From an uncultured virus (IMG/VR IMGVR_UViG_3300030329_003010) (taxonomy: Duplodnaviria; Heunggongvirae; Uroviricota; Caudoviricetes), in IMG/VR virus record IMGVR_UViG_3300030329_003010: a stretch of DNA of 20,000 bases, one strand, 5' to 3'. The translations under genes were made by a program, and so were the position numbers. Shown here piece after piece: positions 419 through 18,184 of this stretch (within the stretch, counting starts at the first letter, position 1; each line of letters opens with the position of its first letter). Below the pieces are notes generated by a model. That model was not told where the DNA came from, searched no databases, and worked only from the letters and a program-made list of their open reading frames with translations.

Positions 419-1288
419 CTACTCACCCCCGAATAAATCAAAATAATTGAGCGCATCCTTAGCGTCAAGTCTTTCGATTACAAACATATCTTTCATTTTT
501 AGTTTTCTTGTAGCACCATTAATTCTTGAATCATTCATACGATTCTTTTTACGGTCAGTAAATATCAAAGCACTACCTAATATACAAGCATCTTCCATTG
601 TGATAAAACAACCCATGAAAGTGTTCATATCTATGGAACAGAAAGTACCATCTACGTTGATTGCGGGTACGGGTTGAACGAAAAGATTACTCCATTCTAA
701 CCCCACATTAACCCTCGCAACAAAGGTCAAGATTGGTTTTTTGGACTTAGCGTACTGTCTTTGTGTTATGATAACTTCATGATTGCCTTCTTTATTGGGT
801 ATAGTCGCATTTATACAAATCCTCATACCAATAGCCTCCTTTTCTTCGTGAGGGAAAGGATTCGTAGTTATCCTAGCGTCATATCCTCTTTCTTTTATTG
901 TTTGTACTAGACCTACTAACCAAGCATAATCGTCAAACTTTTCTCTAGTCACGGCCTTGATATAAACTGAAACCGGCTCTCTCCACAGGGTTACAAAAAC
1001 ACCCTCTTGGTTTTCTATTAGTTCAGTCAATAGTTCCGAAAACGGAGTTTCTAAATCCATCATGCTATCATATACATCACGGCGATAGGGCGGTGGAGAT
1101 GGGTAGCATAAAGCACATACCAAATCATACACCGTTCTTCTATCGGTAATGTGGCCCATCAGCCTGTCGTCTTGATGTAACAAGGACAAATCACAGGATG
1201 TAAGACTTCCTACCCTGCCGGTAGTGAAATACTCAACCTTGATGTCTCTAGTATCAATTACCAAAGGGGCTAGATTATTTGTGTTCAT
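419..1288 (-). CDS. Hypothetical protein, 289 aa
   Basis: Long ORF with GGGGTGA SD; its ATG overlaps the upstream stop (ATGA). Confidence 0.85.
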   Translation of the reverse strand: MNTNNLAPLVIDTRDIKVEYFTTGRVGSLTSCDLSLLHQDDRLMGHITDRRTVYDLVCALCYPSPPPYRRDVYDSMMDLETPFSELLTELIENQEGVFVTLWREPVSVYIKAVTREKFDDYAWLVGLVQTIKERGYDARITTNPFPHEEKEAIGMRICINATIPNKEGNHEVIITQRQYAKSKKPILTFVARVNVGLEWSNLFVQPVPAINVDGTFCSIDMNTFMGCFITMEDACILGSALIFTDRKKNRMNDSRINGATRKLKMKDMFVIERLDAKDALNYFDLFGGE

Positions 1289-1461
1289 TCAATCACCCCA
1301 AGTAAAGCGTCATATATTGTGTCTAATCGTTTCTTATCAGACATCTTAGGATTGCCCGCTTCTTGGAATAGATACAAGGCATCCTGTATTCCCTTACGCA
1401 ATCGCTTAATTTCTGCGAGTAATTCTTTCTTTGTGTATATTGAAGATATATGGTTTTTCAT
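1285..1461 (-). CDS. Hypothetical protein, 58 aa (MKNHISSIYTKKELLAEIKRL...; not in ORF track)
   Basis: Exactly fills the gap between neighbours; GGGGG SD, TAATAATG junction at the start, ATGA overlap at the end. Confidence 0.8.
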   Translation of the reverse strand: MKNHISSIYTKKELLAEIKRLRKGIQDALYLFQEAGNPKMSDKKRLDTIYDALLGVIE

Positions 1462-1463
1462 TA

Positions 1464-1778
1464 TTACAACCCCCTTTGCATGGCTTTGTACTCTTCTTTT
1501 GTGTAATGTTCTTCAACTTTAGGAACAAACATTTTGATAATGTAAATCCAATGGCGTACAAGTTCTAATTCCGATTGAAGAAGATGAGAATTCGGATGCT
1601 CTTGTAAGTTTTGAGCCTTCTCTTGTAACACTCTTAAAACCCCTTTCTCCCAAATCCCTTTTCTAATAACTCCTGTATAATTAACAACCCAAGAAAGGTA
1701 GCCACCAAAACTATTATGTTTGTAGAATTCACTCGTCATTTTATCTGCTAATACTTCATTCCATTTTATATCACTCAT
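1464..1778 (-). CDS. Hypothetical protein, 104 aa
   Basis: GGAGGAGG SD; coupled to both neighbours. Confidence 0.8.
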   Translation of the reverse strand: MSDIKWNEVLADKMTSEFYKHNSFGGYLSWVVNYTGVIRKGIWEKGVLRVLQEKAQNLQEHPNSHLLQSELELVRHWIYIIKMFVPKVEEHYTKEEYKAMQRGL

Positions 1779-1780
1779 TA

Positions 1781-1972
1781 TTATTCCTCCTCCAACTCTC
1801 TTACCTTCTCATCATACAATGCGTACGCTTTTTGTTCATCTCCGATTTCCCATCCTTCGACTAACTCCTTTGTATCATTAGATGTATGTCTCACTATATC
1901 AATAGCCCAAACAAACTTAGCGAGTTTGTGCATCTCAACTTCTTTATCTCCAATCATCGCACTTTGAATCAT
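1781..1972 (-). CDS. Hypothetical protein, 63 aa
   Basis: GAGGGGG SD; coupled to both neighbours. Confidence 0.8.
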   Translation of the reverse strand: MIQSAMIGDKEVEMHKLAKFVWAIDIVRHTSNDTKELVEGWEIGDEQKAYALYDEKVRELEEE

Positions 1973-1974
1973 TA

Positions 1975-2289
1975 TTACAACCCCCTCTCTTCTTTTATCT
2001 TTCGTAAAACTCTAGCAAACGCCTTCCATTTCTTGTTGTATTCCTTTGTGAATTGTGAATTGTTAGGTGGCTTGACTCCAACCCAAGGAGCGATGCCTAA
2101 GATAACAGCCTCAAGAGTCTTAAGGTATTGCCTTTCAGCCTCGGCATAAGCGTTCATTCTATCACTCTCGGCAGGATTAAACTTACACTTAGGACATAAT
2201 ACATATCCTTCTTCATCCGGTAATGTGTCCTCCTTATTGAATGCGACGAATCTAGTGAAACAAGCCTCACAAGTCATTGTTATACCCAT
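1975..2289 (-). CDS. Zn-ribbon protein (CxxC...CxxC)
   Basis: CEAC and CPKC pairs. Start moved to ATG 2289 (MGITMT), just after the upstream stop and with a GAGGGG SD. Confidence 0.75.
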   Translation of the reverse strand: MGITMTCEACFTRFVAFNKEDTLPDEEGYVLCPKCKFNPAESDRMNAYAEAERQYLKTLEAVILGIAPWVGVKPPNNSQFTKEYNKKWKAFARVLRKIKEERGL

Positions 2290-2290
2290 T

Positions 2291-2581
2291 TTAAGCACCC
2301 CTCTCGATGTATTGTGTTGCTTCGTCTATGTTTACCAGCGCGTAAGTTTCTACATAAGTTCTCATTTCGTTGTCTTTACGAACCCTACCCATCTTCTCAA
2401 TACCTTTCCATCCGTGAAGTATTTGTGCAATAGTTCTCGCTGATGGTACTTGGAAATTTTTAGAGATAATCCTTTCTCTAATTCCATCGTTCATTCTTTC
2501 AACGATTTGGTTCGCGGTCAAAGTTCCTTCGTAGTTTCTTAGCACGAATAAAATCGCACGCCGTAGTCTAATGTGTCTCAT
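2291..2581 (-). CDS. Winged helix-turn-helix protein, putative transcription regulator
   Basis: RRAILFVL...LTANQIVERM...PSARTIAQIL...IEK gives a three-helix plus wing pattern; ATG is 29 nt from its own TATA box. Confidence 0.7.
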   Translation of the reverse strand: MRHIRLRRAILFVLRNYEGTLTANQIVERMNDGIRERIISKNFQVPSARTIAQILHGWKGIEKMGRVRKDNEMRTYVETYALVNIDEATQYIERGA

Positions 2582-2602
2582 AATTAATCATTCCTCCTCA
2601 AG

Positions 2603-2945: not shown

Positions 2946-3091
2946 TCTTTCTCCTCCCATTCAACATATTCTCCACAACTTCGGCATTTAACTTCGCATT
3001 GATTGAATACAGGATGTAAAATTTCATCCCATGTTCCACATTTACAAACCCATCTGTATAGGCTTTCTGTATAAGTTATATTGCACTTCAT
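2942..3091 (-). CDS. Small Zn-ribbon protein, 49 aa
   Basis: WVCKCG...KCRSCG; ATGA-coupled start. Confidence 0.75.
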   Translation of the reverse strand: MKCNITYTESLYRWVCKCGTWDEILHPVFNQCEVKCRSCGEYVEWEEKE

Positions 3092-3591: not shown

Positions 3592-3819
3592 TCATTCCTC
3601 CTCGGTGCGGTCGGAAGTGGCTTCTGCCTCCCCCGACAACGTTTTCTCCACTGACTCCTCGTTATTAAACCCTTCGGTAGCGGCTTTGTAAAGTCCTATA
3701 TGTGCTATCATAACATCTCTTGTACAACGCATACAAGCATAATCTCCTCCGAAGATTAAAGTTAGTACGTTGCCTTGGTTACAAAGACAACATGAGTGAT
3801 ATTGTAATCCTGTTTCCAT
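3592..3819 (-). CDS. Small Zn-finger protein, 75 aa
   Basis: CCLC...CMRC; its 3' part overlaps a promoter copy. Confidence 0.7.
   Translation of the reverse strand: METGLQYHSCCLCNQGNVLTLIFGGDYACMRCTRDVMIAHIGLYKAATEGFNNEESVEKTLSGEAEATSDRTEEE
3662..3693 (-). promoter_or_regulatory. Class A promoter, degenerate and intragenic
   Basis: CTTTACAAAGCCGC-N10-TTTAATAA, upstream of the DenV-like gene. Confidence 0.6.
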
Positions 3820-4334: not shown

Positions 4335-4883
4335 TTACCACAACCATCCTAAGATTCTTCGGATTAGACCACTCTTTCTAGGTGGATTTTCTGCTAATAC
4401 TAACTCCAACTGCGCTACTATTTCTTCTAGTTCTTCGACTTGAGTTTCTAATACCGTAACCCTATCTTCTAACTCATAGATTTCACAATTGTTCTTGATG
4501 TCGTCGTAATCCACATAGTCACTAATATCAAAGCCACTAAACACTGATTCCGTAATATCATCTTCGATGTTGTATTTGATTGTATCAAAGTCAATGTGGT
4601 CATTGACCTGCTCAAGAATATCATCCTCGATTTCATATCTAATATCACAAGTGTCGATGTAATCATTAACATCAATGTAATCGGACAAATCCATGTTGCT
4701 CATAAATTCCTCGATAAACTCATGTACTTTACCTTCACTAATTAAGTCGTCAGTATCGATGAATTCTAAGAAATTAGTATTCTCAAGATGACTTAAGATT
4801 GATGCTTCAATCATCCCACTATCTATTTCACTCAATACACCTTCAATTATTGCGCTTTCATCAAATTCTATTTCTGCTTCCAT
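4335..4883 (-). CDS. Very acidic protein with internal repeats, a coiled coil and an amphipathic C-terminal tail
   Basis: About 52/182 residues D/E (hand count); repeated ID.D.I.Y.IEDDI; tail RKSGLIRRILGWLW; GAGGAGG SD. Confidence 0.85.
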   Translation of the reverse strand: MEAEIEFDESAIIEGVLSEIDSGMIEASILSHLENTNFLEFIDTDDLISEGKVHEFIEEFMSNMDLSDYIDVNDYIDTCDIRYEIEDDILEQVNDHIDFDTIKYNIEDDITESVFSGFDISDYVDYDDIKNNCEIYELEDRVTVLETQVEELEEIVAQLELVLAENPPRKSGLIRRILGWLW

Positions 4884-5115: not shown

Positions 5116-5813
5116 CTTTCCTCCACTTTCAAAGAGTATTTGTACGTTTTTTCATCCCAATGATAATCCTCATAAAGACTCATGTTATCTATCAAATCCG
5201 CAACTAATCCATCCATACTTTCTTCGATTTGGTATATTGTGCTTGTGCCTAGCCATGTATCAATAACATATTTGGCCGTCTTTTTGAGTTGTTGAATTTC
5301 ATGATAATCGATTCTAGTTATACCATCGTACTTATGAATTTCCTTGATACGGTGCAGCCTCTCGATTTTAGCCTCATCATAGAGTTCTTCATGTAAACTT
5401 TCATTATAGTTTTCATCTTCTGCAAAAACCTTTTCCATTTTAAGATTCTTGTCTGCTTCATCCCTAAGTGAATTATTGGCTTGTCGTAAAGCCATGTATG
5501 CTAAAGCATGGTCACATTCTTCTGCCGATTTCCTAGCGGCATTACAAGTGAAATCTGCTTCGGATAATTTCTCAACAAATTCAAGAGTGATAGGCCAATA
5601 ATCTTGTGAAGGCTTAGGGCATTGTATTCTATCATAGAGAGAGAATCGTCTATACGCTTCTTCTATTGAAGTCTGATGTCGAGCGTCACCGATACTACCT
5701 ACGCCAGTGACCATACACATTACTCCCATTCCAAACGAAGGAATGAATTCGCGTTGAGCCTCGGTGAACTCTTCAAACTTTTCTTTATTCTTACATCCTA
5801 CTCTTAACGGCAT
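5097..5813 (-). CDS. Hypothetical protein, about 238 aa
   Basis: Start re-assigned to MPLRVG after the upstream stop, with GAGGGGGAG SD. Confidence 0.85.
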   Translation of the reverse strand: MPLRVGCKNKEKFEEFTEAQREFIPSFGMGVMCMVTGVGSIGDARHQTSIEEAYRRFSLYDRIQCPKPSQDYWPITLEFVEKLSEADFTCNAARKSAEECDHALAYMALRQANNSLRDEADKNLKMEKVFAEDENYNESLHEELYDEAKIERLHRIKEIHKYDGITRIDYHEIQQLKKTAKYVIDTWLGTSTIYQIEESMDGLVADLIDNMSLYEDYHWDEKTYKYSLKVEESLTNPL

Positions 5814-5814
5814 T

Positions 5815-6021
5815 TTACTCCCCCTCCTCTTCTTCATTTTCCATAGCCACAATCAATTGTTTCATTTCAGAAATTCTCTTCATTCTACTCCAAACCATAT
5901 AAGCATTATCGGTCATCGTTTCTAATTCCTCAAGACTATACCTATTCAACAATCTGTTTGGCATCTTTTGTTTCATCCAATACATTAATTCGTCTATCCA
6001 TTTCCATTCAATCGGTTTCAT
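5815..6021 (-). CDS. Hypothetical protein, 68 aa
   Basis: GGAGG SD; coupled to both neighbours. Confidence 0.8.
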   Translation of the reverse strand: MKPIEWKWIDELMYWMKQKMPNRLLNRYSLEELETMTDNAYMVWSRMKRISEMKQLIVAMENEEEEGE

Positions 6022-6022
6022 A

Positions 6023-6463
6023 TCATTCTTCCTCCTGTGTGTTTCCTGTTAAATTGTCCTCTACTTCCGCGCTTATATAGTTTTCGGTGGCGGGTTCGTT
6101 AGGTGTCCAATTGTTTTCTTTGTTCAAATTATAATCGTGTTTATGGCAAAACCAAACCGTACAACCAGCACCGTGCATTTGAACCCAACAAGCGACTGAT
6201 ACTCTACTATTAGCATAATCCTGTTTTTCACCTACACTCTCATTCACATTTTCTAAAAATGATTTGAAAGTAGGGAATGTTAAATGCAAACTAGGTATAT
6301 CTTTAGAGTTATAAACACCTGCTATGGCCCTAAAATACTTGAAGTGTTTACCAATCTTTCTTTTTTCTTTTTGTATTAGTTTGGTTACAAAAACAGGGTC
6401 GTCAAACGGACCTTGCCATTTTTCTTCGTTCAAATCTAGTGTGTATGTTATTTTTTCATTCAT
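6023..6463 (-). CDS. Hypothetical protein, about 146 aa
   Basis: Start re-assigned to MNEKIT; a promoter copy is embedded in its 3' end. Confidence 0.8.
   Translation of the reverse strand: MNEKITYTLDLNEEKWQGPFDDPVFVTKLIQKEKRKIGKHFKYFRAIAGVYNSKDIPSLHLTFPTFKSFLENVNESVGEKQDYANSRVSVACWVQMHGAGCTVWFCHKHDYNLNKENNWTPNEPATENYISAEVEDNLTGNTQEEE
6072..6103 (-). promoter_or_regulatory. Class A promoter, intragenic
   Basis: CCTAACGAACCCGC-N10-TATATAAG. Confidence 0.75.
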
Positions 6464-6464
6464 T

Positions 6465-6665
6465 TTATTCTTCCTCCTCAAAATATTGTAATATCTTTTT
6501 TATTGTATGGTCTGTGAACCTATCTTCCATATGGGCCTTATCAAGGGCGTAAATCAATCTCAATCTTTCGCTAGGTTGTTCTAACGCCTTAGTAAAAAGC
6601 GATGCTAGTGTATTATACCTATACGATTTCATTTTCATTGTGTTTGCATATTCTTCTAAATCCAT
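6465..6665 (-). CDS. Hypothetical protein, 66 aa, paralog A
   Basis: GGAGGTGA SD; 42/66 identical to 7124..7324. Confidence 0.85.
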   Translation of the reverse strand: MDLEEYANTMKMKSYRYNTLASLFTKALEQPSERLRLIYALDKAHMEDRFTDHTIKKILQYFEEEE

Positions 6666-6666
6666 A

Positions 6667-7122
6667 TTACTTCACCTCCAAGCCGACTATTTCATATCCA
6701 CTCCATTTAATACAAGCCCTTCTGAAATTATCATCTAAATCGTCAAGGATTGCATAACCATTTTCATCCCTTTCTATAACAAGTTCTTTGATTTCATCCC
6801 ACGATAAATCGCTTTCTTTCTGATGCTCTTCTGCTAATGAAACCCAAGGTGGGAATAAACAATTCCGGTCATTATAATTTTGAGCGCGGTCATCCCATGT
6901 ATTCCTTTCATAGTCCCATGTCCATTTGTAATTAGGGTCCGATTCTGAATAATGAATGATACCTTTCTTTTCTAAAGACGTAACTATCGCTCTCCATTGT
7001 TTAGGATTCATGCTACAATATGAAGCCGATACCCACATGACTATACCTGTACCGTCAGTCGTATGGTCTGAACAAACCATGTCCGTGATAAATTGAAATT
7101 CTAGTTTTGTTATTTGTTTCAT
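6667..7122 (-). CDS. Hypothetical protein, about 151 aa; N-terminus possibly winged-helix-like
   Basis: Start re-assigned to MKQITK; the 'WRAIVTSLEKKGII' pattern is HTH-like (weak). Confidence 0.75.
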   Translation of the reverse strand: MKQITKLEFQFITDMVCSDHTTDGTGIVMWVSASYCSMNPKQWRAIVTSLEKKGIIHYSESDPNYKWTWDYERNTWDDRAQNYNDRNCLFPPWVSLAEEHQKESDLSWDEIKELVIERDENGYAILDDLDDNFRRACIKWSGYEIVGLEVK

Positions 7123-7123
7123 T

Positions 7124-7324
7124 TTATTCATCCTCCTCATAATATTCTAATATCATTTTAATTGTGTGATTTGAAAACTCACCTTCCATATGAGCCTTAT
7201 CAAGAGTGCGAATTAATCTCAATCTTTCCCAAGATTGGTCTAACGCCTTGGTAAAAATCGCGGCCAATTTGTTATACCTAAAACTATTCATCTTTCTTCT
7301 ATGTGCGTGTTCATCTATATCCAT
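7124..7324 (-). CDS. Hypothetical protein, 66 aa, paralog B
   Basis: Start MDIDEH with GGAGGAGG SD; ungapped alignment to 6465..6665. Confidence 0.85.
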   Translation of the reverse strand: MDIDEHAHRRKMNSFRYNKLAAIFTKALDQSWERLRLIRTLDKAHMEGEFSNHTIKMILEYYEEDE

Positions 7325-7326
7325 AT

Positions 7327-7778: not shown

Positions 7779-7780
7779 AT

Positions 7781-9592: not shown

Positions 9593-9717
9593 TTTTTTCG
9601 GCCATATTGTTTTTGTAACCGTAACAAAAAATAAAAAAACTTACGACCCCCTTCTCGGTCCTCCACCGCTACCGGATGAGGGTGGGCCAAAAAAGGGGCC
9701 GTAAAAGGTGAATGTAA

Positions 9718-10064: not shown

Positions 10065-10539
10065 TGTTTTTGTAACCCTAACTTTTTATTTTACCAACTT
10101 AAATGTTTTTGTAACCCTAACTTTTTGTAGCGGTTTTTTAGGATTTTGTTTTTGTAACCGTAAGTTTCGGCTGGAGAAAGCGGGTTACAAAAACTGTTTT
10201 TGTAACCGGCGCGAGCGAGCAAAAAAAATAGCGCGAAAAAAAACGGGTTACAAAAACTTATAGAAGTCTGTAACAATGCGTTACAAAAACTCTCTTAGGG
10301 TTTCGCTCGGAGTGAGGGATTTACCGACAAACGAAGCGAGGATAGTTGTTCCCTCGTTGGGTATGTAAGAATGGGTTACAAAAACTCTCTTATGTTTTTT
10401 TGGTTTCCAATGCACGCTCTCGGAGCCAATCCCTCGATACGCTAGAGCAAGGTGCTAAACTCGCCCTTGCGGGAAATCCCGCCTTTTTGTAAAGCCCCTT
10501 TCGGAGCCATTGGAATGTGATAGTGGGTTACAAAAACTT

Positions 10540-10980
10540 TTACTTCTTTCTTCTTACGTGATATACTGATGTGACCCTATGCCTTCGGCCACTTGTCCAG
10601 TCATGGATTTGACCTGCTCGGACACACAAAACATGACTTCTAGTGAAAACAATATACACGCCACGTTTCGGGATAATTCCGGCCCGTTGCATGGCTCCGA
10701 TGGTCATAGACGAACCGAATTTTTTCCTCCAAAGAGTCGGACTCATTTTATGATTACCTTCAACCGGCTCGGTTACAAAATCTAAATCCTTCATCGCTCT
10801 TAGCATTCTTGATTCACAAAGACCTTTTCGATAACTTCTACCACGAAGGGCGCATTTACCATGAGCAGTTTCATAATTTACGCCGGTAGCAATCGCAACC
10901 GCTTTGACCGTACAATCATTCATTTCGCCCCATTTATCAGAGGCTTTAGACATCTTCTTGAACAATTTTGATTCACTCAT
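10540..10980 (-). CDS. Putative papain-fold (C39-like) cysteine peptidase/amidase
   Basis: NDC..KA.AIATG..Y...H, then Y.V....H...V..G...DW, which gives a Cys/His/Asp arrangement typical of this viral family. Confidence 0.6.
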   Translation of the reverse strand: MSESKLFKKMSKASDKWGEMNDCTVKAVAIATGVNYETAHGKCALRGRSYRKGLCESRMLRAMKDLDFVTEPVEGNHKMSPTLWRKKFGSSMTIGAMQRAGIIPKRGVYIVFTRSHVLCVRAGQIHDWTSGRRHRVTSVYHVRRKK

Positions 10981-11084: not shown

Positions 11085-11105
11085 ATTTACTCCTCTCCTT
11101 CTTTA

Positions 11106-11175: not shown

Positions 11176-11270
11176 TATATCGCCCCCTTCAATCTCAAAT
11201 TTTTGCACTCTCTACATTTGCATTTTGCTGGATTTCCGGCACACATTTCATCTAAAATATCTAGTATCAT
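11175..11270 (-). CDS. Cys-rich micro-protein, 31 aa (not in ORF track)
   Basis: MILDILDEMCAGNPAKCKCRECKNLRLKGAI; coupled at both ends. Confidence 0.6.
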   Translation of the reverse strand: MILDILDEMCAGNPAKCKCRECKNLRLKGAI

Positions 11271-11462
11271 TCAATAATCATCTCCATTAAAGCCCAATTT
11301 TTCATGAATGAGATATAGAATATAATCTACTTGTTCAAATTCAAAAGGGTGAACACTAACTGTATCGTAATTAACGAATTTTAAGATTTCACAACATGCA
11401 TTTTCAAGTCTTGATATTTGCTCATCCGACATTTTTTCTAATTTTCTCTTTATTAAATTCAT
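11271..11462 (-). CDS. Hypothetical protein, 63 aa
   Basis: GGTGG SD; ATGA overlap. Confidence 0.75.
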   Translation of the reverse strand: MNLIKRKLEKMSDEQISRLENACCEILKFVNYDTVSVHPFEFEQVDYILYLIHEKLGFNGDDY

Positions 11463-11575
11463 GAAGCCACCACCTTTTTAGTTTTACAATGAGGGCAATT
11501 TTTATCTTTACAGGAATCGGGCCAAAGAGTGACCATCAAATCATGACCAATTTTCATTTCGGGTTGTTCGCTCAT
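11459..11575 (-). CDS. Cys-rich micro-protein, 38 aa (not in ORF track)
   Basis: MSEQPEM...CKDKNCPHCK; GGGGGTGA SD; TAATG and ATGA coupling. Confidence 0.7.
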   Translation of the reverse strand: MSEQPEMKIGHDLMVTLWPDSCKDKNCPHCKTKKVVAS

Positions 11576-11892
11576 TAAAATTTCACCCCCAACCATTGTT
11601 CAATAACATAGTCATCATAAAATTGGCCGGATTGGTCAAAATATTCCCAAGGTAAATTTACGTTATTTTCTGGCGGTATGAAATCAGTATAACCTCTATC
11701 TTTTAGGAAATTGACTAATAACCAATTTTCTAACTCTTCAAGATTCATTGAATCAAGATACAGTGAATAAAATTTGTACAATTGAAGTATTCTAGTTTTA
11801 TATTTCCCAAAATCGACCCATTCCTCTTTCGTGAAATCTTTTTCAAAGGATTTCGCATGAGCAATTTTGTATGGAGTTAATTTAGTAATCAT
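11575..11892 (-). CDS. Hypothetical protein, 105 aa
   Basis: GAGGAGGAGG SD. Confidence 0.8.
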   Translation of the reverse strand: MITKLTPYKIAHAKSFEKDFTKEEWVDFGKYKTRILQLYKFYSLYLDSMNLEELENWLLVNFLKDRGYTDFIPPENNVNLPWEYFDQSGQFYDDYVIEQWLGVKF

Positions 11893-11893
11893 T

Positions 11894-12127
11894 TCAATTC
11901 CTCCTCCTCAATAACGGCATCTCGTTCTCATATTCAACGGTTCTTATCATCATTTCAAGAATCATATCTTCATAAGTTCTAGTTTGAAGTACGATATTTC
12001 CATTTTCATCCCTCAATGTCCAATACAATCTTATTTTACCATCGTAAGGATTTTCTAATTCTTCTCGGCAAATTTCAAGACCCATACATTCATGTTTAAC
12101 AATTCGATTTTCATAATTACTGTACAT
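11894..12127 (-). CDS. Hypothetical protein, 77 aa
   Basis: Coupled to both neighbours. Confidence 0.8.
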   Translation of the reverse strand: MYSNYENRIVKHECMGLEICREELENPYDGKIRLYWTLRDENGNIVLQTRTYEDMILEMMIRTVEYENEMPLLRRRN

Positions 12128-12286
12128 TTAATAATCCGCTCCATTAAATCCAAGTTCTGCAATTTCATTCAAAACCCAATCCGATAGGGGTGGGTAAGAA
12201 TTCAATCGCTCCTTTCTTTCATTCAATATTCTTTCAATTTTAGCAATTACCTTGGGGCAACGCTTTGGTAGGCTTCTTCCGCTCAT
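12128..12286 (-). CDS. Leaderless hypothetical protein, 52 aa, first gene of the minus block (not in ORF track)
   Basis: MSGRSLPKRCPKVIAK...LGFNGADY; ATG 29 nt from a TATA start; stop abuts the next ATG. Confidence 0.8.
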   Translation of the reverse strand: MSGRSLPKRCPKVIAKIERILNERKERLNSYPPLSDWVLNEIAELGFNGADY

Positions 12287-12307
12287 AATCAACAATTAGC
12301 AACCTAG

Positions 12308-12339
12308 TATTTATATATATCGGTAGCGGGTTTGTAAGG
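12308..12339 (-). promoter_or_regulatory. Class A promoter
   Basis: CCTTACAAACCCGC-N10-TATAAATA; ATG 12286 at +29. Confidence 0.85.
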
Positions 12340-12720
12340 TCATACTTATGAAGTTTTTGTAACCCGATAGTTCGGGGGAGGATTGAATCTTTTCTACTAT
12401 AAAGTATGACGCGCTCACGCGAGTATAGCGTTTTTGATTTTGTAACCCATTTTTGTAACCTGTTTGAGAGTGATAATATATTTCAAGTTTTTGTAACCGG
12501 ATATTTTCTGAACTGTTTTTGTAACCCCGAAAAGACCTACTGCCTCATTCACACTTGCTTTACTCTTTGCACTCGGTTTACTTTTTACACTAACTTTGTT
12601 TTTGTAACCGATGGTTGGGGGTCGATTTTGCTCTCTCTGTGGGGTTACAAAAACACTTTTTGGGTTACAAAAACACGTTTTGGGTTACAAAGACAGGTTA
12701 CAAAAACACGCTTTTGTAAC

Positions 12721-12747
12721 CCGAAAATCGTTAGACTGGTCGGCATT
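12721..12747 (+). repeat. 27-bp direct repeat, copy 2
   Basis: CCGAAAATCGTTAGACTGGTCGGCATT. Confidence 0.8.
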
Positions 12748-12813
12748 TTTTAATCGTCAAAAAATAACTACGATTTGCCCCTACTTTATCGAGATTTTAG
12801 CACTTTTTTGAAT

Positions 12814-12851
12814 TTCACTTTCAGTTTTTTCTGAAAGTGAACCTGAAAGTG
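12814..12851. repeat. Perfect 11-bp inverted repeat plus an extra half-site
   Basis: TTCACTTTCAG-TTTTTT-CTGAAAGTGAA, followed by CTGAAAGTG. Confidence 0.8.
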
Positions 12852-13200
12852 TTTACGTCTAGCGTTTTTTAAATTTTTGTAACTGTTTTTGTAACCGGTA
12901 AAATGTTATTTTTTTGTTTTTGTAACTTGTTTTTGTAACCGACCCTTACTATATATTAATTTAGCAAACATTATATACTATGAATGGTTTTTGTAACCGG
13001 ACCCAAATCGCCAGCATATCGGAGCCGTTTTCTTGAAGCATCCACTTACAAGTATATAAACAATTGGTTTTCGCCCCCCCACCATTGTTTTTGTAACCCA
13101 CAATGTTTTTGTAACCGCGCTGGTGTAAAAAATGCACTAAATTACTAAAAAAAACCTAAAAGGTTACAAAAACAGAAAAAACCTACAAATGCACAAATCA

Positions 13201-13236
13201 ACGAACATACTATAAGGGAAGGGGGTATCTCGTAAC
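13201..13236 (+). promoter_or_regulatory. BRE/TATA-like leaderless promoter
   Basis: ACGAACA-TACTATAAG about 29 nt before ATG 13237. Confidence 0.6.
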
Positions 13237-13704
13237 ATGAGCAAAGAATACGAGCGAGAAAATAAGCCGAAGTGGTGCAAGCCATGTAAGAAGACCAAGA
13301 GGGGCATCATTGTTGATGATTGCTTCATGTGTGTTGATTGTGCAACCGAAGAGGGTTATACAGTCATCAAGAAAAGCAACGCTAACAAGACCTCATTCAC
13401 ATCAAAAACAGGTAAGAAGTCAAGAGCAAAGCAGTTGAATGATATAGACGCTATGCACCGAGCAAATCAAGCCCGAAGGGTCAAGGCTACCCAAAGAGCA
13501 AAGATGGCCGCAGAGAGGCGTAAAATCGCACTTATGGAGGGTATGGTAGGCACTGATGGACTCGCTAACCATTTCCGTATGAATGGAGTGTGTAAGTGCT
13601 GCAAGGGTCGCCTTCCTGTTTCTCAAGCCGCATATGTTCACCGTGACGCTTTTGTAACCCCGAACAAAGTTCCAACCGTACTATGTAGGGGGTGCGTTGA
13701 ATGA
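13237..13704 (+). CDS. Basic Zn-binding protein, 155 aa; C-terminus resembles a degenerate HNH
   Basis: N-terminal CKPC/CVDC; C-terminal CKCC...H...N....LCRGC; leaderless promoter upstream. Confidence 0.75.
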   Translation: MSKEYERENKPKWCKPCKKTKRGIIVDDCFMCVDCATEEGYTVIKKSNANKTSFTSKTGKKSRAKQLNDIDAMHRANQARRVKATQRAKMAAERRKIALMEGMVGTDGLANHFRMNGVCKCCKGRLPVSQAAYVHRDAFVTPNKVPTVLCRGCVE

Positions 13705-13943
13705 AAACTCCATTAATTACCCAAGAGGTTTTTGTAACCGAAAAAATTGCTTGGAGAGATTTTGAAAACAAAGACCTTGGTAAAATTGTCGTTAAACAAA
13801 TCACCTACGGGCCGCCCGTAGTTATTGGTTATGTGGTCGAAGATGATGAAGGAATGGAGAAGAAGGTAGTTCACTACAAGAACGCCAAGAAGTCGATATA
13901 CAAAGAAGATTCGCCGTCATATTTGAATGAGGTATTCGGATGA
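13701..13943 (+). CDS. Hypothetical protein, 80 aa
   Basis: ATGA overlap; GGGGGTG SD. Confidence 0.8.
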   Translation: MKTPLITQEVFVTEKIAWRDFENKDLGKIVVKQITYGPPVVIGYVVEDDEGMEKKVVHYKNAKKSIYKEDSPSYLNEVFG

Positions 13944-13968
13944 GTTTTTGTAACCGGAGGTAATAAGT

Positions 13969-14085
13969 ATGTGTAGAATTTGTAAACAATGGGTGAAAGG
14001 TTATTCTTATGAAAATGGCTCCTTTAGAGGTCAACCTAAATTTTGGGATGGTATCTGTACAAATTGCGGTAGAGATGAAAGTTGA
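13969..14085 (+). CDS. Zn-finger micro-protein, 38 aa (not in ORF track)
   Basis: MCRICKQW...ICTNCGRDES; GGAGGT SD. Confidence 0.75.
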   Translation: MCRICKQWVKGYSYENGSFRGQPKFWDGICTNCGRDES

Positions 14086-14320
14086 TTTTGTAACCGTTTT
14101 TGTAACCTATCTCTGTACGTTTTTGTAACTCTGTATCTCTCTGTATCTCTGTACGTTTTTGTAACCGTTTTTGTAACCTGTGCAATTTTGTTTTTGTAAC
14201 CGAAGGCGCGTAGCGCGGACCCCGATACCACTTGAGATGCAGGTATATAATCATATGTTTTTGTAACCCATAAGGGTGCTTTTCCGAAACATATATATGC
14301 TGTGGTCCCCTCCCATTAAA

Positions 14321-14427
14321 TAGAGGAGGAGGAAGCGAGAACAGACCACTTGCGGAAGGTCGAAATTGAAAGGAGGATAGCACCGAGTAAAGGAGAGCCG
14401 TAAGAAGAACAGTCATAAGCAGTTTTT
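14321..14427 (+). ncRNA. Candidate purine-rich small RNA, about 100 nt
   Basis: Promoter CCGAAACA-TATATATG at 14284-14299 matches those of neighbouring genes, but no ATG follows; ends at a T-tract motif copy. Confidence 0.4.
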
Positions 14428-14730
14428 GTAACCTAGTCCCACACCCCCCCGTAACCAATAAGACCTAACTACTTGCTTTTGTAACCGGCTGCTATACCAA
14501 CCACGGCGAAGTCACTGGGCTACGGGATAAGGGGGGGCGTGAAACTTTTTTTGTAACCCAGTTTTTGTAACTGGGTTATTTTTTTTGTAACCTAGAATGT
14601 TTTTGTAACCCACACTCTCTGTGTGTTTTTGTAACCTAATTTCTCTCTGTGTGTTTTTGTAACCCACACTCTCTGTTTGTTTTTGTAACCCAAGACGCGA
14701 AGCGTAAAAAATGTTTTTGTAACCCATTAT

Positions 14731-14806
14731 GTACAAAAACAAAATTGTTTTTGTAACCTATAACTACAATCCAAACATATATAAGGGGACACCCTATCCG
14801 ACAAAT
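14731..14806 (+). promoter_or_regulatory. Class B promoter (inverted motif pair, TATA, leaderless ATG)
   Basis: GTACAAAAACAAAATTGTTTTTGTAACC-N19-TATATAAG; ATG at +29. Confidence 0.8.
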
Positions 14807-15286
14807 ATGGGTACTAGATGTAACATACGAATAACAGATGAACGAGATGAATTATGGTTTTACCGTCATTATGACGGTTATCCCGATATGATTATACCGG
14901 ATTTGGCCCCGTTAATGGAAGCCTTGCAGAATGGTCATGTTCGCGATAATGTTGGCCAATTTAGCGGTTGGTTAATAGTAATCGGAAATAAGGATATGTG
15001 GAGCAATAGAAGCCTCCCAACAGGTAGAATGCGCGAGGGTGGTTATTCAGCATGGAAATGCGGAAACTATGAGCCAACAACAGGCAGACACGGAGACATA
15101 GACTTCCTTTATCATATCGACCTAGTTCAAAAAACTATGACGGTTTACAACGGATGGACCGGAGAAGAAGAAGATTTGGCTAAATTTTTTCCCCATGAAG
15201 TTATAGAGTGTTATCCCTATATCTCCTATCTTGATTTTGTAACCAACGAAAATTCTTATGGATATGAAGGTTGTAATTGGTCGTGA
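14807..15286 (+). CDS. Conserved viral protein with the MGTR...YRHYDGYP motif, 159 aa
   Basis: Start re-assigned to 29 nt after TATATAAG; the M.TR..I and Y.H.DGYP motifs mark a widespread phage family of unknown function. Confidence 0.85.
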   Translation: MGTRCNIRITDERDELWFYRHYDGYPDMIIPDLAPLMEALQNGHVRDNVGQFSGWLIVIGNKDMWSNRSLPTGRMREGGYSAWKCGNYEPTTGRHGDIDFLYHIDLVQKTMTVYNGWTGEEEDLAKFFPHEVIECYPYISYLDFVTNENSYGYEGCNWS

Positions 15287-15372
15287 TTTTGTAACCGTTT
15301 TTGTAACTCTCTCTCTTTAGTTTTTGTAACCAAAACTTTTTTTGTTTTTGTAACCGAATATTTCCTAGCACT

Positions 15373-15447
15373 GGCTACAAAAACAATTGTTTTTGTAACC
15401 CCATAACTTAACGAAACATATATAAGCGGAGGCTACATCTCACAAAT
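15373..15447 (+). promoter_or_regulatory. Class B promoter
   Basis: GGCTACAAAAACAATTGTTTTTGTAACC-N18-TATATAAG; ATG at +29. Confidence 0.8.
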
Positions 15448-15639
15448 ATGGAGCATTACCGTAACCATATGGTATCGAACAGGAGATACCACAAAGAACG
15501 ACGTTTGAACGCCAAGAAGCAGAAGAAAGCACTAGAGAAGGCCAAAGAGTCCACTCAAGTAGCCATGAAATTCGCATTCGCTACACGAAGCATATGCCTA
15601 AAATACGGCTACCGCTTAGAAAAGGAGGTTGAAGTTTAA
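15448..15639 (+). CDS. Small basic protein, 63 aa
   Basis: ATG 29 nt from a TATA start. Confidence 0.8.
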   Translation: MEHYRNHMVSNRRYHKERRLNAKKQKKALEKAKESTQVAMKFAFATRSICLKYGYRLEKEVEV

Positions 15640-15836
15640 TGTGCGAAAAATGTAAAAACGACGATGGATTGAAAGAGCATTTGAGGATTAAAGATGAGTC
15701 ACTAACTAACGGCTTGATTTATTGGTTCTGTCCCGATTGTGGTAGAATAGACAAACCATATCATGATAGATTCAATAAGTTAGGGTTCGGAGTATGGATA
15801 TGGGGTTCGCCCGATTGGATGATTCATGATGAATGA
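15639..15836 (+). CDS. Zn-finger protein, 65 aa
   Basis: CEKC...CPDCG; GGAGGT SD; TAATG coupling. Confidence 0.8.
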   Translation: MCEKCKNDDGLKEHLRIKDESLTNGLIYWFCPDCGRIDKPYHDRFNKLGFGVWIWGSPDWMIHDE

Positions 15837-15897
15837 TTTTGTAACCCTTTCTCTGTATGTTTTTGTAACCGAGGGATAAATATGTTTTTCATTTTTG

Positions 15898-15956
15898 TTT
15901 TTGTAACCGGACTACTCATTCCAAACCATTATATACCCGCACCACTTCGTAGGGGT
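15898..15956 (+). promoter_or_regulatory. Class B promoter
   Basis: TTTTTGTAACC-N19-ATTATATA; ATG at +29. Confidence 0.8.
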
Positions 15957-16130
15957 ATGAGCGAACAACACGACGCACACGTTAGAACATGGAAGCAATT
16001 TTGGAATGAATACTTCAATAATATGATGGATGAAGAAATATCAGAAGAAGAAGAAAGGAAAATGATGGAAGCAGACCTAGCATTAGACCGCCACCTACAA
16101 AGAATAGAAGATTCTTACGGAGAGTATTGA
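15957..16130 (+). CDS. Small acidic protein, 57 aa
   Basis: Start re-assigned to MSEQHD, 29 nt from a TATA start. Confidence 0.8.
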   Translation: MSEQHDAHVRTWKQFWNEYFNNMMDEEISEEEERKMMEADLALDRHLQRIEDSYGEY

Positions 16131-16131
16131 A

Positions 16132-16323
16132 ATGAGCAAACCATTGTTTTTTGTAACCCCCAACGCACCTAAAGGTCGGGCCTGTATTTGGACAGACAAA
16201 GCCCAACGCACTAGAGACGCACAAATCAAGGCACTAATCCCATTGGCCCATAATGGCAACGTAGAGGCCATGCAAGCCCTTCGACTTGTCCTTTGGACTA
16301 ATGTAGTAGCGGGTGCAGTTTAA
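16132..16323 (+). CDS. Hypothetical protein, 63 aa
   Basis: GGAG SD; coupled to the upstream gene. Confidence 0.75.
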   Translation: MSKPLFFVTPNAPKGRACIWTDKAQRTRDAQIKALIPLAHNGNVEAMQALRLVLWTNVVAGAV

Positions 16324-16324
16324 G

Positions 16325-16361
16325 TTTTTGTAACCAGAGGATAAATCACGACTATTATATA
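16325..16361 (+). promoter_or_regulatory. Class B promoter
   Basis: TTTTTGTAACC-N18-ATTATATA; the downstream gene has a short leader. Confidence 0.7.
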
Positions 16362-16398
16362 CTGCCTACTACTAGGGTCAATCAAGAAGGGTGCGAAT

Positions 16399-16674
16399 AT
16401 GGATATAGAAGTAAAATATAACGGAAAGAGTTGGGAGCCGAGAGTAACAAAATACAAGGTAGTTATGGGTAACTTTCATGGCCGAATGGATAAACACAAC
16501 GGCCAGTTCGTTCATCTTGATTTGTTTTTGAGTCTTGGGGAACAAGATTTGCAGGTTTATTATGGAAATATAGTCGCTAATAACAACAAAGAATTGAAGG
16601 AAATAATCGAGGAAAAGATAAGCGAGTTCAAGCCTTTTGTAACTAAGTTATATGAGTTTATGATGAACTTGTGA
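16399..16674 (+). CDS. Hypothetical protein, 91 aa
   Basis: Own TATA box at 16354; AGGGTG SD. Confidence 0.8.
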   Translation: MDIEVKYNGKSWEPRVTKYKVVMGNFHGRMDKHNGQFVHLDLFLSLGEQDLQVYYGNIVANNNKELKEIIEEKISEFKPFVTKLYEFMMNL

Positions 16675-16882
16675 TTTTGTAACCGGCGTTTTTGTAACCC
16701 TCTTTGTAACCGGTGTTTTTGTAACTCGTTTTCTTTTTTTTGTTTTTGTAACCCATGTTTTGTTAATCCTTGTGGGTACAAAAACATTTTTGTTTTTGTA
16801 ACCCTAGTTATTTTTTTGCTCGCGCAACGGTTACAAAAGCGTTGTTGGGTTACAAAAACAATATTATTGGGTAATCGTTGGG

Positions 16883-16911
16883 TTTATATACGAACACCCT
16901 ATCCGACAAAC
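16883..16911 (+). promoter_or_regulatory. TATA promoter, leaderless
   Basis: TTTATATA with ATG at +29; shares CACCCTATCCGACAAA with the 14807 promoter. Confidence 0.8.
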
Positions 16912-17097
16912 ATGAACGTACGACTATCGAACGACAAAGGAATGACTGTCCATTACATCAAGGCCCGAAGGTTGCTTATCAGAACCAATAACGGCGTACG
17001 AGATGTGACGACATTAGACGACCAACAAGCCCACGCTTTTGAAACCTTAGTGCTTCAAAACCGCTTCAAGGGCTGCACTATTGAGGTATTAGCATGA
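16912..17097 (+). CDS. Hypothetical protein, 61 aa
   Basis: Start re-assigned to MNVRLS, 29 nt after TTTATATA. Confidence 0.8.
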   Translation: MNVRLSNDKGMTVHYIKARRLLIRTNNGVRDVTTLDDQQAHAFETLVLQNRFKGCTIEVLA

Positions 17098-17522
17098 ACG
17101 AAAGAGCATACCACACGAATGAAATTATTGACTTGACCATTGAAAACGGCGGAGGCACTTGGCTAAGAGTAGGCATGGGTGTTTTTGTAACCCCGAATTC
17201 TAATGATAGGTATGTCTTAGCCGCTTATGATGGCGACGGCTTAGTTATCCCTAATTTCATGAGTCAACCAATTGATTTTGTAACCCAACTTGTTGATTGG
17301 TTTGCATCACAACAAAACAGCCGAATATACACAAACAGTGGTTTTTGTAACCAAGTTGTAAACGCTCATTTTGGAACTTGGGTTCGTGGTGATGATTTAG
17401 TGCTTGATATTGTGGAACTAGAAAATGATTTTGTAACCGCGATGGAAAAAGCGAGAGAGCGAAATCAAAATGCAATCTTTGACCTAGTAGAGATGAAAGA
17501 GGTTTTTGTAACCGAGGAGTAA
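17094..17522 (+). CDS. Conserved viral protein with G.W......LD...A...A...NQ.AIFDL motif, 142 aa
   Basis: GAGGT SD; ATGA overlap; contains five TTTTGTAACC copies. Confidence 0.8.
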   Translation: MNERAYHTNEIIDLTIENGGGTWLRVGMGVFVTPNSNDRYVLAAYDGDGLVIPNFMSQPIDFVTQLVDWFASQQNSRIYTNSGFCNQVVNAHFGTWVRGDDLVLDIVELENDFVTAMEKARERNQNAIFDLVEMKEVFVTEE

Positions 17523-17624
17523 ATGCTTTTGTAACCGAGGTTTTTGTAACCTCTCTCTCTTTGTTTTTGTAACCAAGAGATTTGTGTTTTTGTAACCCGT
17601 TTGTTTTTGTAACTTAACGTCGTG

Positions 17625-17700
17625 GCCACAAAAACAAAATTGTTTTTGTAACCTAAACGATAATCGCTACCTTTATATACGCACACCCTATCCCGTAAAC
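17625..17700 (+). promoter_or_regulatory. Class B promoter
   Basis: GGCCACAAAAACAAAATTGTTTTTGTAACC-N18-TTTATATA; ATG at +29. Confidence 0.8.
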
Positions 17701-17829
17701 ATGAACTACACAGATAACGAATACGGTTTCCATTGTGGAAACCCTGTATGTACACGAAATTGTTTTGCTTGTGCGAACCGCTTGACCATAATATATGGCC
17801 AATGGGTCGAAGTACCGGAGTTGATTTAA
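17701..17829 (+). CDS. Cys-rich micro-protein, 42 aa (not in ORF track)
   Basis: MNYTDNEYGFHCGNPVCTRNCFAC...; ATG 29 nt after TTTATATA. Confidence 0.75.
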   Translation: MNYTDNEYGFHCGNPVCTRNCFACANRLTIIYGQWVEVPELI

Positions 17830-17831
17830 AC

Positions 17832-18032
17832 ATGAACAACAGACAACGATTGATAAATGAATTAAAGAAAGCAGACGGTAAAGCGTTTGATACCTTAAGA
17901 AAAGAATTCAAAGAGGCGAATAATGAACAAATGGTCGGCTTTATGGATTGGATGGAGCGCACTCAAGGCAAAGGTTACGCGGTGGCCATACTTGAAGAAC
18001 TTGGGTATTTTGTAACGGAGGCGATTGAATGA
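17832..18032 (+). CDS. Hypothetical protein, 66 aa
   Basis: Start re-assigned to MNNRQR, with GGAG SD. Confidence 0.8.
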   Translation: MNNRQRLINELKKADGKAFDTLRKEFKEANNEQMVGFMDWMERTQGKGYAVAILEELGYFVTEAIE

Positions 18033-18184
18033 AACACTCAAGGTTAATGGCTACATTGTTACATGAGTTTTTTGTAACCCTTGAAGATGATAACCCTCTC
18101 AAAGATTATATCACATTTCATGTTGAAGTATTTGGTATTGAATCGGCAGTTCTATTTTTACGAGAACGAGGATATGATGTTTGA
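18029..18184 (+). CDS. Hypothetical protein, 51 aa (MKHSRLMATLLHEFFVTL...; not in ORF track)
   Basis: GGAGG SD; ATGA overlap; stop followed directly by the repeat motif. Confidence 0.7.
   Translation: MKHSRLMATLLHEFFVTLEDDNPLKDYITFHVEVFGIESAVLFLRERGYDV

Follow-up and report, generated by a model that had tools for sequence, protein, structure and literature searches.

A 20,000-nucleotide stretch of DNA from an uncultured phage of the Caudoviricetes (IMG/VR record IMGVR_UViG_3300030329_003010), hereafter the window, contains 99 copies of the 8-mer TTTGTAAC, the core of a 12-letter word, GTTTTTGTAACC. Selection acts on this word at the nucleotide level and overrides protein sequence where copies lie inside genes. 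The word is restricted to ~9 kb of early genes rich in promoters, forms arrays ahead of promoter-like boxes, and takes a different form in each related lineage. It is probably a half-site in duplex DNA for a sequence-specific and lineage-specific protein, itself likely to be phage-encoded, that would control transcription of the early-gene cassettes.

An asymmetric word is over-represented in the early region

The window covers a phage early region in which open reading frames (ORFs) are small and mostly without a known family in Pfam and PHROGs scans. The leftward gene block ends near 12300 and the rightward block begins at 13237. Our gene map comprises 51 genes from ORF-based calls and was reproduced by a simple codon-score caller. 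The core is found 81 times on the plus strand and 18 times on the minus strand, against an expectation of 1.44 copies (standard deviation 1.16, maximum 6) in 200 dinucleotide-preserving shuffles. Alignment of the copies gave the extended consensus tGTTTTTGTAACC, with G at position -3 in 89/99 copies, T at -1 in 95/99, and C at +8, after the core, in 86/99. Exact 12-mers number 63, and 32 further copies have one mismatch.

Only four copies fall outside 9612-18552. The gene map places 82 copies between genes and 17 within them, and 86 of the 99 are co-oriented with local transcription. The 13 copies inverted with respect to it are all intergenic, which gives an intergenic polarity of 69:13. Spacing between adjacent copies peaks at 12 bp (abutting sites) and at 23 bp. 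Perfect or near-perfect palindromes occur at 10184/10199, 12697/12713, and 18394/18406. The first, GGTTACAAAAAC-T-GTTTTTGTAACC, is perfect and lies in array 10069..10534, and the second, 12697(-)/12713(+), is a near-palindrome in array 12356..13170.

Intragenic copies are selected as nucleotide sequence

An earlier note on this DNA had claimed that unrelated proteins repeatedly contain Phe-Val-Thr (FVT) encoded by TTT-GTA-AC and that every intragenic copy is co-oriented with its gene. Both claims hold. All 16 positions that it listed are exact TTTGTAAC on the strand given, within 1-3 nt, including the five in gene 17094-17522 (FVT in four, FCN in one) and two off-frame copies (17344, GFCN; 3778, CLCN); we found one more off-frame copy, 8452(-), RICN, that it had missed. 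Each of the 17 intragenic copies is sense; 12 belong to rightward genes and five to leftward (minus-strand) genes (Table 1). An 18th ORF-internal copy, 9612(+), was set aside by judgment and counted as intergenic, because the antisense ORF that holds it, 9490-9690(-), is doubtful; no other ORF scores lower for coding potential (5.3), its start codon is TTG, and a leftward promoter-like site, TCGACA-17-GATAAT, falls within its bounds in part or whole.

Fourteen of the 17 copies are read as TTT-GTA-ACN (FVT) and three as xTT-TGT-AAC (x-C-N). The third sense frame contains the stop codon TAA and is therefore impossible, leaving these two readings only. The antisense frames are all open (GYKN, VTKT, and LQK), and composition favors the antisense orientation because the coding strand is A-rich. 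Over 15,522 nt of coding sequence, 17 sense and no antisense copies were observed. Codon shuffling within genes predicted 0.34 sense and 0.62 antisense copies, and resampling of synonymous codons with the proteins kept predicted 3.5 sense (maximum 9 in 1000) and 0.86 antisense. The FVT tripeptide occurs 14 times versus 0.63 expected from amino acid composition and is tied with EEE as the commonest tripeptide in these genes. A bias in its codons, which had been proposed as a check, is marked: TTT-GTA is used in 14/14 cases and ACC in 12/14, versus general usage of 0.63 for TTT, 0.37 for GTA, and 0.21 for ACC. Taken together, these counts rule out chance.

The strand bias inside genes thus stands when set against shuffled sequences, but not as something distinct from the bias between genes, as 17:0 does not differ significantly from 69:13 (Fisher p = 0.12). 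The copies inside genes thus behave like other array members. This bears on a reading at the RNA level, in which some factor (RNA-binding protein, nuclease, or termination factor) would bind or cut UUUUUGUAACC in mRNA, and the word would for that reason be sense. The 17/17 sense copies are in its favor. We nevertheless regard an RNA signal as very unlikely: the polarity in genes is indistinguishable from that of the arrays, and there are 13 inverted copies, perfect palindromes among them. Further evidence on this point is given with the promoters and the lineages below.

Comparison with relatives showed that the word, rather than the peptide, is kept. The nearest relative, G001, is a 33,145-bp IMG/VR contig that is collinear with window positions 5284-20000 at 82-95% identity and that carries, beyond the collinear part, genes for terminase, exonuclease, a portal-like protein, and tail proteins. 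Identity between the window and G001 is 98.1% (620/632) at motif positions, an upper estimate because the alignment was partly seeded by repeats, versus 91.6% (5266/5747) at other aligned positions of the same region. Of 81 aligned copies, 79 are intact. Seven close relatives of the 142-aa protein encoded by gene 17094-17522 (66-99% identical) have VFVT (2/7) or GFCN (5/7) at site 1; in the DNA alignment with G001, the 11-mer TTTTTGTAACC is intact and shifted one base along. Sites 2 and 5 of this protein are invariant, site 3 is absent in 3/7, and site 4 is absent in 1/7. Copies have also been gained or lost in other genes. G001 has DFRN where the window has AFVT, homologs of gene 16132-16323 in loci L004 and L005 carry an additional VFVT, and the FFVT of the window is FYRT in L005. 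Among 13 distant homologs (27-38% identity), FVT was found at one site of a single protein, P0018 (codons not visible), and the homologs in L017, L023, and L024, phages that carry another word, have 0/5 sites. Because the codons are invariant, frames switch with the word kept, and distant homologs are, but for that one site, without FVT, we conclude that it is the nucleotide word that is under selection, at the expense of protein sequence, as the earlier note had proposed.

These comparisons also bear on whether the arrays could be a by-product of recombination and duplication, with mobile promoter cassettes similar to PeSL (promoter early stem-loop) elements, tandem duplication, and ORFs that have grown into arrays. 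Homology between the window and G001 does break at arrays (window 13713-14086, 14789-15619, 16335-16688, and 17517-18008), with different cassettes between the breaks, a pattern that suggests modules exchanged when repeat arrays recombined. In some arrays the repeats are no more than tandem duplications (at 14598-14692, for instance, 3.6 copies of a 26-bp unit), and seven of the 17 intragenic copies lie within the first 22% of the protein and five within the last 12%. A by-product is nonetheless scarcely plausible as the explanation. Tandem duplication explains only some arrays, isolated full 12-mers lie deep in genes (990, 6384, and 17184-17430), the word is retained through a frame change, motif positions are better conserved than their flanks, and the distance to the TATATA box is fixed.

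Arrays precede a recurring promoter layout

Arrays occupy at least 10 separate intergenic gaps over 9 kb. They often start at or just after the upstream stop codon, as with TGA-TTTTGTAACC at 14083, 15283, 15835, and 16672. A perfect tGTTTTTGTAACC is found 18-21 bp upstream of TATATA(A/C) at five sites in the window (14750, 15392, 15900, 16327, and 17645) and, with the same spacing, at six further sites in relatives, and the box lies ~25 nt ahead of a start codon. Each cassette comprises a head-to-tail array, a promoter-proximal site, a box without a -35 element, and a start codon at these distances. Inspection of the promoter units revealed no -35-like hexamer 16-18 bp upstream of the TATATA boxes, and the region holds no excess of sigma-70-like sites (28 versus 26.6 expected). 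The box is nearly palindromic, so per-strand box counts cannot orient promoters. A degenerate inverted half (ACAAAAACA-N3-6-TGTTTTTGTAACC) stands ahead of 4/76 right-arm plus-strand copies (14750, 15392, 16795, and 17645), three of which are the last before a TATATA box (P1, P2, and P6 in Table 1); at four promoters the promoter-proximal site is partially dyad.

This layout argues further against an RNA signal, as each TATATA box has a perfect copy upstream, outside the presumed transcript of that unit. On the other side, the lineage of the window has no obvious terminators ahead of its arrays, the spacers are CU-rich, and terminator-like sites (a spacer hairpin plus a T-run) number 15 versus 7.5 +/- 3.0 in shuffles. 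The pyrimidine-rich spacers (CTCTCTGTGT-type on the sense strand) lie at 14598-14700, 14111-14150, 17550-17565, and 18215-18375, and some spacer hairpins run into the T-run of the motif itself.

Several other elements accompany the promoters. A near-identical leader, ACACCCTATCC(G/C)NNAAAYATG, follows three TATATA boxes (14787-14809, 16892-16914, and 17681-17703) and is also present in relatives; it lacks a Shine-Dalgarno sequence, and strong AGGAGG sites serve the internal genes of these units. Leftward genes have a conserved promoter element of their own that reads, on the leftward strand, ACCTTACRAACCCGC, 9-15 bp, and then TATAAATA or TTATAAG. It is exact at 2621, 9579, 10051, 11124, and 12326, has variants near 5060 and 8800, and includes the motif core in an inverted, variant form (TTYGTAAGG). 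Each arm of the phage early region thus seems to have a promoter class of its own, two in all. Downstream of array 14087..14267, a TATATA box is followed by a conserved ORF-less unit of ~260 nt (14283-14545), which is highly conserved in G001, L003, and L005. This unit has a 5' CCCTCC/GGAGG hairpin, a long-range C7/G7 helix, two sense copies of the motif (14425 and 14478), and compensatory change in 5/60 predicted pairs. It is a candidate phage non-coding RNA and has no Rfam match; Rfam and tRNA scans returned nothing above threshold.

Each lineage has its own word in a restricted region

In IMG/VR, 132 relatives of the G001 terminase were found; 80 of these (65-100% identity) were kept for comparison, and four complete relative genomes were available. 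Counts across loci are not independent, owing to the shared ancestry of the lineages and to duplicate contigs (L014 and L013 are G001, L018 is the contig of L005, and L025 is that of L004). Complete relatives (60-72 kb) encode a tape-measure protein, DNA polymerase, clamp loader, and GroEL-like protein. All 13 sequencing runs listed are recorded as DNA, from marine or sponge metagenomes, and none as RNA. No match to the window DNA or to the 366-aa protein encoded beside its last array was found in cultured phages (megablast and tblastn), where the best terminase match is ~27% identical. A search for related loci with the alignment of close relatives recovered only G001.

Counting of k-mers in 18 loci with terminases 65-94% identical identified ~11 variants of the word. 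The over-represented word is particular to the lineage, with a core common to all and a 3' part that varies (TTTGTA plus three to five specific bases): GTTTTTGTAACC, TTTTTGTCC, TTTTTTGTACT, TGTTTTGTAGTT, TAATTTGTAGTAA, TATTTTGTAGGGT, AAATTTGTAGCATA, TATTTTGTAGTC, GTTTTGTAGGCA, AAAATTGTAACC, and GTTTTGTAACA, with AATTTGTAGC in the complete genome G007. Locus L041 has a different over-represented word, CCTCGCAAGCGT-like, that occurs 8 times. The words are local in relatives too: 99/102 copies lie within 1-14 kb of the 33 kb of G001, 57/60 within 32-40 kb of the 68.5 kb of G005 (99% complete), and 71/73 within 63.8-71.8 kb of the 72 kb of G007. In complete relatives the word is confined to ~11-12% of the genome. 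Eleven sites of G007 are perfect 16-bp palindromes, GCTACAAATTTGTAGC. One complete relative of 67.6 kb (G006, loci L105-L108; terminase 65% identical) has no array at all. Copies in other lineages are nearly all intergenic (for example, 61/63 in L032 and 57/59 in L045), so that heavy intrusion into genes is special to the lineage of the window. The rare intragenic copies elsewhere read FVT or FCN (L091), FVV (L032), or FCR (L077).

The polarity relative to flanking genes differs between lineages. The T-rich strand is mostly sense in the clade of the window (72:8), L032 (36:9), L037 (24:2), L057 (37:12), L045 (39:7), L046 (38:10), L091 (28:2), L087 (9:1), and L062 (11:6). The A-rich complement is mostly sense in L017 (24:3), L023 (9:1), L075 (9:4), L086 (18:8), and L089 (15:8), and polarity is mixed for the GTAGGG variant (L060, 11:5; L068, 7:5; L077, 5:4). 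The A-rich sense intragenic copies in L017, L023, and L024 sit in short putative ORFs (51-74 aa). As 4/11 variants carry the A-rich complement on the sense strand, sense-only polarity is a trait of the arrays of the window lineage and not a general rule of the system. In L017 and L086, a gene ends in a GC-rich hairpin plus T-run and is followed by an array, a TATATAC box, and the next gene; these arrays lie in spacers between predicted terminators and promoters that would be untranscribed. The position of these arrays and the A-rich sense variants are again difficult to reconcile with a signal in RNA. Together with the inverted palindromic copies and those upstream of TATATA boxes, the sense-strand variation counts against both the RNA signal and the directional translocation cue that the earlier note had suggested.

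Relative to the terminase gene, however, the majority orientation is identical in 18/18 loci (11 variants), although the flanking genes are reversed in four variants. The arrays could accordingly be imagined as a directional cue along the genome axis, like KOPS (FtsK-orienting polar sequences), Chi, or DUS (DNA uptake sequences), that is read by a translocating machine such as the replisome, a packaging or injection motor, or an exonuclease. We find a cue of this type highly improbable. The lineages share ancestry, and the 18 orientations are thus not 18 independent events. The word is limited to a small fraction of the genome, its polarity in the window flips with the left-arm genes (5/5 intragenic copies on the minus strand), and palindromic pairs carry no polarity. 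A conserved host machine is ruled out as the reader because the word differs between close relatives. A different use of the axis, suggested by arrays keeping their orientation to the terminase gene even where the genes between have flipped, is quite unlikely too. Here the arrays would be a polar device or private address code, in which a lineage half-site (9-13 bp) and a fast-co-evolving reader loading 50-100 times on ~8 kb would serve as a one-way barrier, as a track onto which a moving machine loads, or as a self-mark on early DNA that shuts out related phages in co-infection.

On an unrelated 12-kb contig (L012, from an Anaerotruncus metagenome-assembled genome), TTGTCAAG...TTTTGTAACC-N-TTTTGTAACTTTT pairs with 11-bp spacing occur three times (841-859, 3004-3043, and 4764-4782). 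They may be due to a comparable paired site belonging to a different mobile element, or may have arisen by chance.

A probable binding site and the search for its reader

The palindromic pairs and the fixed distance to the promoter box, upstream of the presumed start, point to a site in duplex DNA, as do the arrays in the presumably untranscribed spacers of relatives and the strand-neutral use of the word across the family. If the word is such a half-site, a putative phage protein would bind the arrays and control the cassette-like early genes. This reader would be encoded by the phage and would co-evolve with its site, because the words are lineage-specific and an array-less relative exists. 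Selection on site number would lead to sites being placed within coding sequence also, where the protein tolerates them, and these copies do lie mostly near protein termini and keep the orientation of the neighboring array. We lean toward an activator, because no -35 element accompanies the TATATA promoters and the proximal site covers about -33 to -58.

The opposite sign of regulation, with a repressor or roadblock, is a serious variant of this binding-site model by analogy with stoperators. A monomeric repressor, for which orientation relative to RNA polymerase matters, would block initiation at proximal copies and stop elongation at the others, silencing toxic early genes during lysogeny or at an early-to-middle switch. 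Asymmetric 12-mers at promoters, in short gaps, and inside genes fit such polar silencing, as do the 86/99 copies (17/17 of those in genes) co-oriented with transcription and lineage variants that resemble immunity specificities. L5-type sites are asymmetric 13-mers whose orientation tracks transcription and is needed for repression (PMC9283540); the published properties match best and would explain the polarity within one lineage. We still hold silencing to be unlikely, if not strongly so. The proximal site is upstream of the -35 position and not over the -10 box or the start, and these promoters have no -35 element to occlude. Polarity relative to genes is reversed in 4/11 variants, and the density of sites far exceeds one per gap. 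No integrase or repressor homolog was found among the proteins scanned (Pfam and PHROGs), and one scan for motif pairs across 185,579 species-representative genomes found no prophage copy. The four loci returned by that scan were unrelated tandem repeats or a different element.

Several points weigh against the half-site model with either sign. No regulator was found among the 34 window proteins or the at most 54 proteins of a complete relative (Pfam and PHROGs). There are no clear terminators between genes and arrays in the window lineage, and its arrays may for that reason be transcribed. No helical phasing of sites was detected beyond the 12- and 23-bp peaks. A simple operator model does not explain the density of the arrays (up to 11 copies per gap), nor does it explain the fixed orientation relative to terminase in 18 loci despite flipped genes. 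The gene maps rest on our own ORF calls, and the promoters and terminators are predictions, all made from sequence.

Several candidates for the reader were considered. The 366-aa protein has no Pfam or PHROG family and no match in the protein atlas, its AlphaFold model is unusable (mean pLDDT [predicted local distance difference test] 35), and profile comparison with the equivalent neighbor genes of other lineages gave a probability of 3%. Scans of four complete relatives for a T7-like RNA polymerase and for sigma region 2 gave no match, and the RNA polymerase control was silent as well. Three unannotated families (256-301 aa, 96-108 aa, and 67-137 aa) occur in all three complete genomes that bear arrays and are missing from the one that does not, a comparison of four genomes only. 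Separately, the first rightward gene, 13237-13704, encodes a 155-aa protein with two CxxC...CxxC zinc-ribbon-like pairs around a very basic helix. This protein is 75-77% identical in G001, L003, and L005, has no family match, and is a possible nucleic acid binder.

Comparison with known systems

Our literature search, which covered motif spellings and analogous systems, found no published description of the word; among the matches listed for raw motif strings, there were primers and the like and no phage motif. The nearest analogue is the operator/stoperator system of Cluster A mycobacteriophages (L5 gp71-type repressor). The site consensus in that cluster reportedly differs between related phages. 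Its asymmetric 12- to 13-bp site is repeated many times, at promoters and within short gaps between genes, and the orientation of the site follows transcription (PMC9283540). The window shares with this system an asymmetric multi-copy site, here a 12-mer, at promoters and in gaps. Orientation follows transcription in the window (86/99 copies) and is reversed relative to genes in 4/11 sister variants. The two systems differ in other respects. Cluster A phages have >20 single sites spread over a temperate genome of ~50 kb, whereas the window has ~100 sites confined to ~9 kb, in tandem arrays of up to 11. The proximal site of the window is upstream of the -35 position. No repressor or integrase was found among the proteins scanned.

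Cluster O mycobacteriophages carry >30 copies of a 17-bp repeat, about one-third of them in coding regions and some near gene starts; the function of these repeats is unknown, and recombination between copies creates indels (PMC4351075). As described there, the Cluster O repeats are palindromic, genome-wide, of little orientation preference, and not in arrays ahead of promoters, and the word of the window differs from them in these respects. In T4-type phages, PeSL elements are described as conserved promoter-bearing intergenic motifs that flank small variable early ORFs at junctions of modular exchange (PMC2839356 and PMC4122927). The window likewise has promoter-containing intergenic units beside small early ORFs at mosaic junctions, as seen in the recurring TATATA units with their leader and in the breaks of homology with G001; it does not have the host sigma-70 promoter and stem-loop terminator (28 sigma-70-like sites versus 26.6, and no -35 at 16-18 bp). 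A PeSL element consists of one host-type early promoter and one stem-loop per junction, has no array of 12-mers, and is not known in coding sequence. None of these three systems (Cluster A, Cluster O, and PeSL) shows such array density, retention of the word through frame switching, or ~11 specificity variants.

DUS, USS (uptake signal sequences), KOPS, and Chi are over-represented oligomers that are held by DNA-level selection even in coding sequence, and KOPS and Chi are polar. They occur throughout cellular chromosomes, where host machinery for uptake or translocation reads them. The likeness to DUS, USS, and KOPS drawn in the earlier note is not supported, as the word of the window is local, tied to promoters, variable between sister phages, and found in palindromic pairs. 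It lies on a phage contig and has neither the genome-wide density of DUS and USS in the chromosome of a competent bacterium nor the genome-wide skew of KOPS and Chi that a conserved host machine reads; its orientation to terminase is fixed in 18/18 loci. Nor do the arrays form a single repeat cluster beside an initiator gene or AT-rich unwinding element, as origin iterons do. In the lambda origin, iterons within gene O form a four-site cluster and are an instance of protein-binding sites embedded in coding sequence. The window resembles it in having sites within coding sequence and differs in having arrays over at least 10 intergenic gaps.

Feature coordinates and annotation

The intragenic copies, arrays, and TATATA boxes are listed in Table 1. 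Arrays yield spurious ORFs that are rich in FVT/FCN on one strand and in GYKN/VTKT/LQK on the other, and annotators should not take them for genes. Artifact ORFs of this type (52-115 aa), which are translated arrays, lie at 12406-12753, 14512-14742(-), 18118-18417(-), and 18181-18339.

Table 1. Intragenic copies of the core, intergenic arrays, and TATATA boxes (P1 to P6) in the window
Position	Strand	Feature	Context
990..997	-	VFVT, full 12-mer	289-aa gene 419-1288(-)
3778..3785	-	off-frame CLCN	gene 3592-3819(-)
6384..6391	-	VFVT	gene 6023-6481(-); retained in G001 despite 61% protein identity
8452..8459	-	off-frame RICN	gene 8068-8487(-); 8-mer core only, possible chance match
9612..9619	+	full 12-mer	antisense to doubtful ORF 9490-9690(-); upstream of leftward promoter-like site; inverted versus leftward transcription
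10069..10534		left-arm array, 9 copies	5 co-oriented with leftward genes, 4 inverted
10772..10779	-	DFVT	gene 10540-10980(-), phrog_3754
12356..13170		largest array, 19 copies (14 +, 5 -)	~940-bp gene-free stretch between gene blocks
13651	+	AFVT	near C-terminus of gene 13237-13704; pair with next spans 13651..13738
13731	+	VFVT	near N-terminus of gene 13701-13943
14087..14267	+	array, 7 copies	from TGA stop of 38-aa zinc-ribbon ORF
14550..14783	+	array, 9 copies	last copy, 14750, is dyad ACAAAAACA-N4-TGTTTTTGTAACC; upstream of gene 14807-15286
14778-14783	+	P1 TATATA	19 bp past proximal copy 14750
15236..15243	+	DFVT	43 nt ahead of stop, gene 14807-15286
15288..15424	+	array, 5 copies	begins at stop codon of gene 14807-15286; proximal dyad 15392
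15419-15424	+	P2 TATATA	18 bp past proximal copy 15392
15838..15935	+	array, 3 copies	proximal copy 15900
15930-15935	+	P3 TATATA	21 bp past proximal copy 15900
16150..16157	+	FFVT	codon 7, gene 16132-16323
16327..16361	+	one copy	directly after TAA stop of gene 16132-16323
16356-16361	+	P4 TATATA	20 bp past copy 16327
16636..16643	+	PFVT	31 nt ahead of stop, gene 16399-16674
16676..16890		array, 8 copies	6 on +, then 2 inverted (16830, 16849); dyad at 16795
16885-16890		P5 TATATA	after the 8 array copies; 90 bp downstream of dyad 16795
17094..17522	+	gene for 142-aa protein, five sense copies	phrog_17808 (function unknown); 17184 VFVT, 17277 DFVT, 17344 GFCN, 17430 DFVT, 17505 VFVT
17528..17679	+	array, 6 copies	proximal dyad 17645
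17674-17679	+	P6 TATATA	20 bp past proximal copy 17645
18009	+	YFVT	C-terminus of ORF ending 18032; pair with next spans 18009..18078
18071	+	FFVT	codon 15 of gene 18029-18184
18188..18552		array, 11 copies	10 on +, 1 inverted (18406, abuts 18394); upstream of 366-aa gene 18589-19689

Significance

The window provides a clear natural case of a DNA word, probably regulatory, that overrides protein sequence: FVT shares first place among the tripeptides of these genes, and one protein has switched from VFVT to GFCN, the word thereby being kept. The comparison reveals a large uncultured marine phage family, with 132 terminase-related loci and no cultured relative above 27% terminase identity. The lineage words form a natural series of specificities through which a new DNA-binding protein, and the code by which it recognizes DNA, could be sought, and they are relevant to how phages insulate early-gene cassettes from one another and from related phages.

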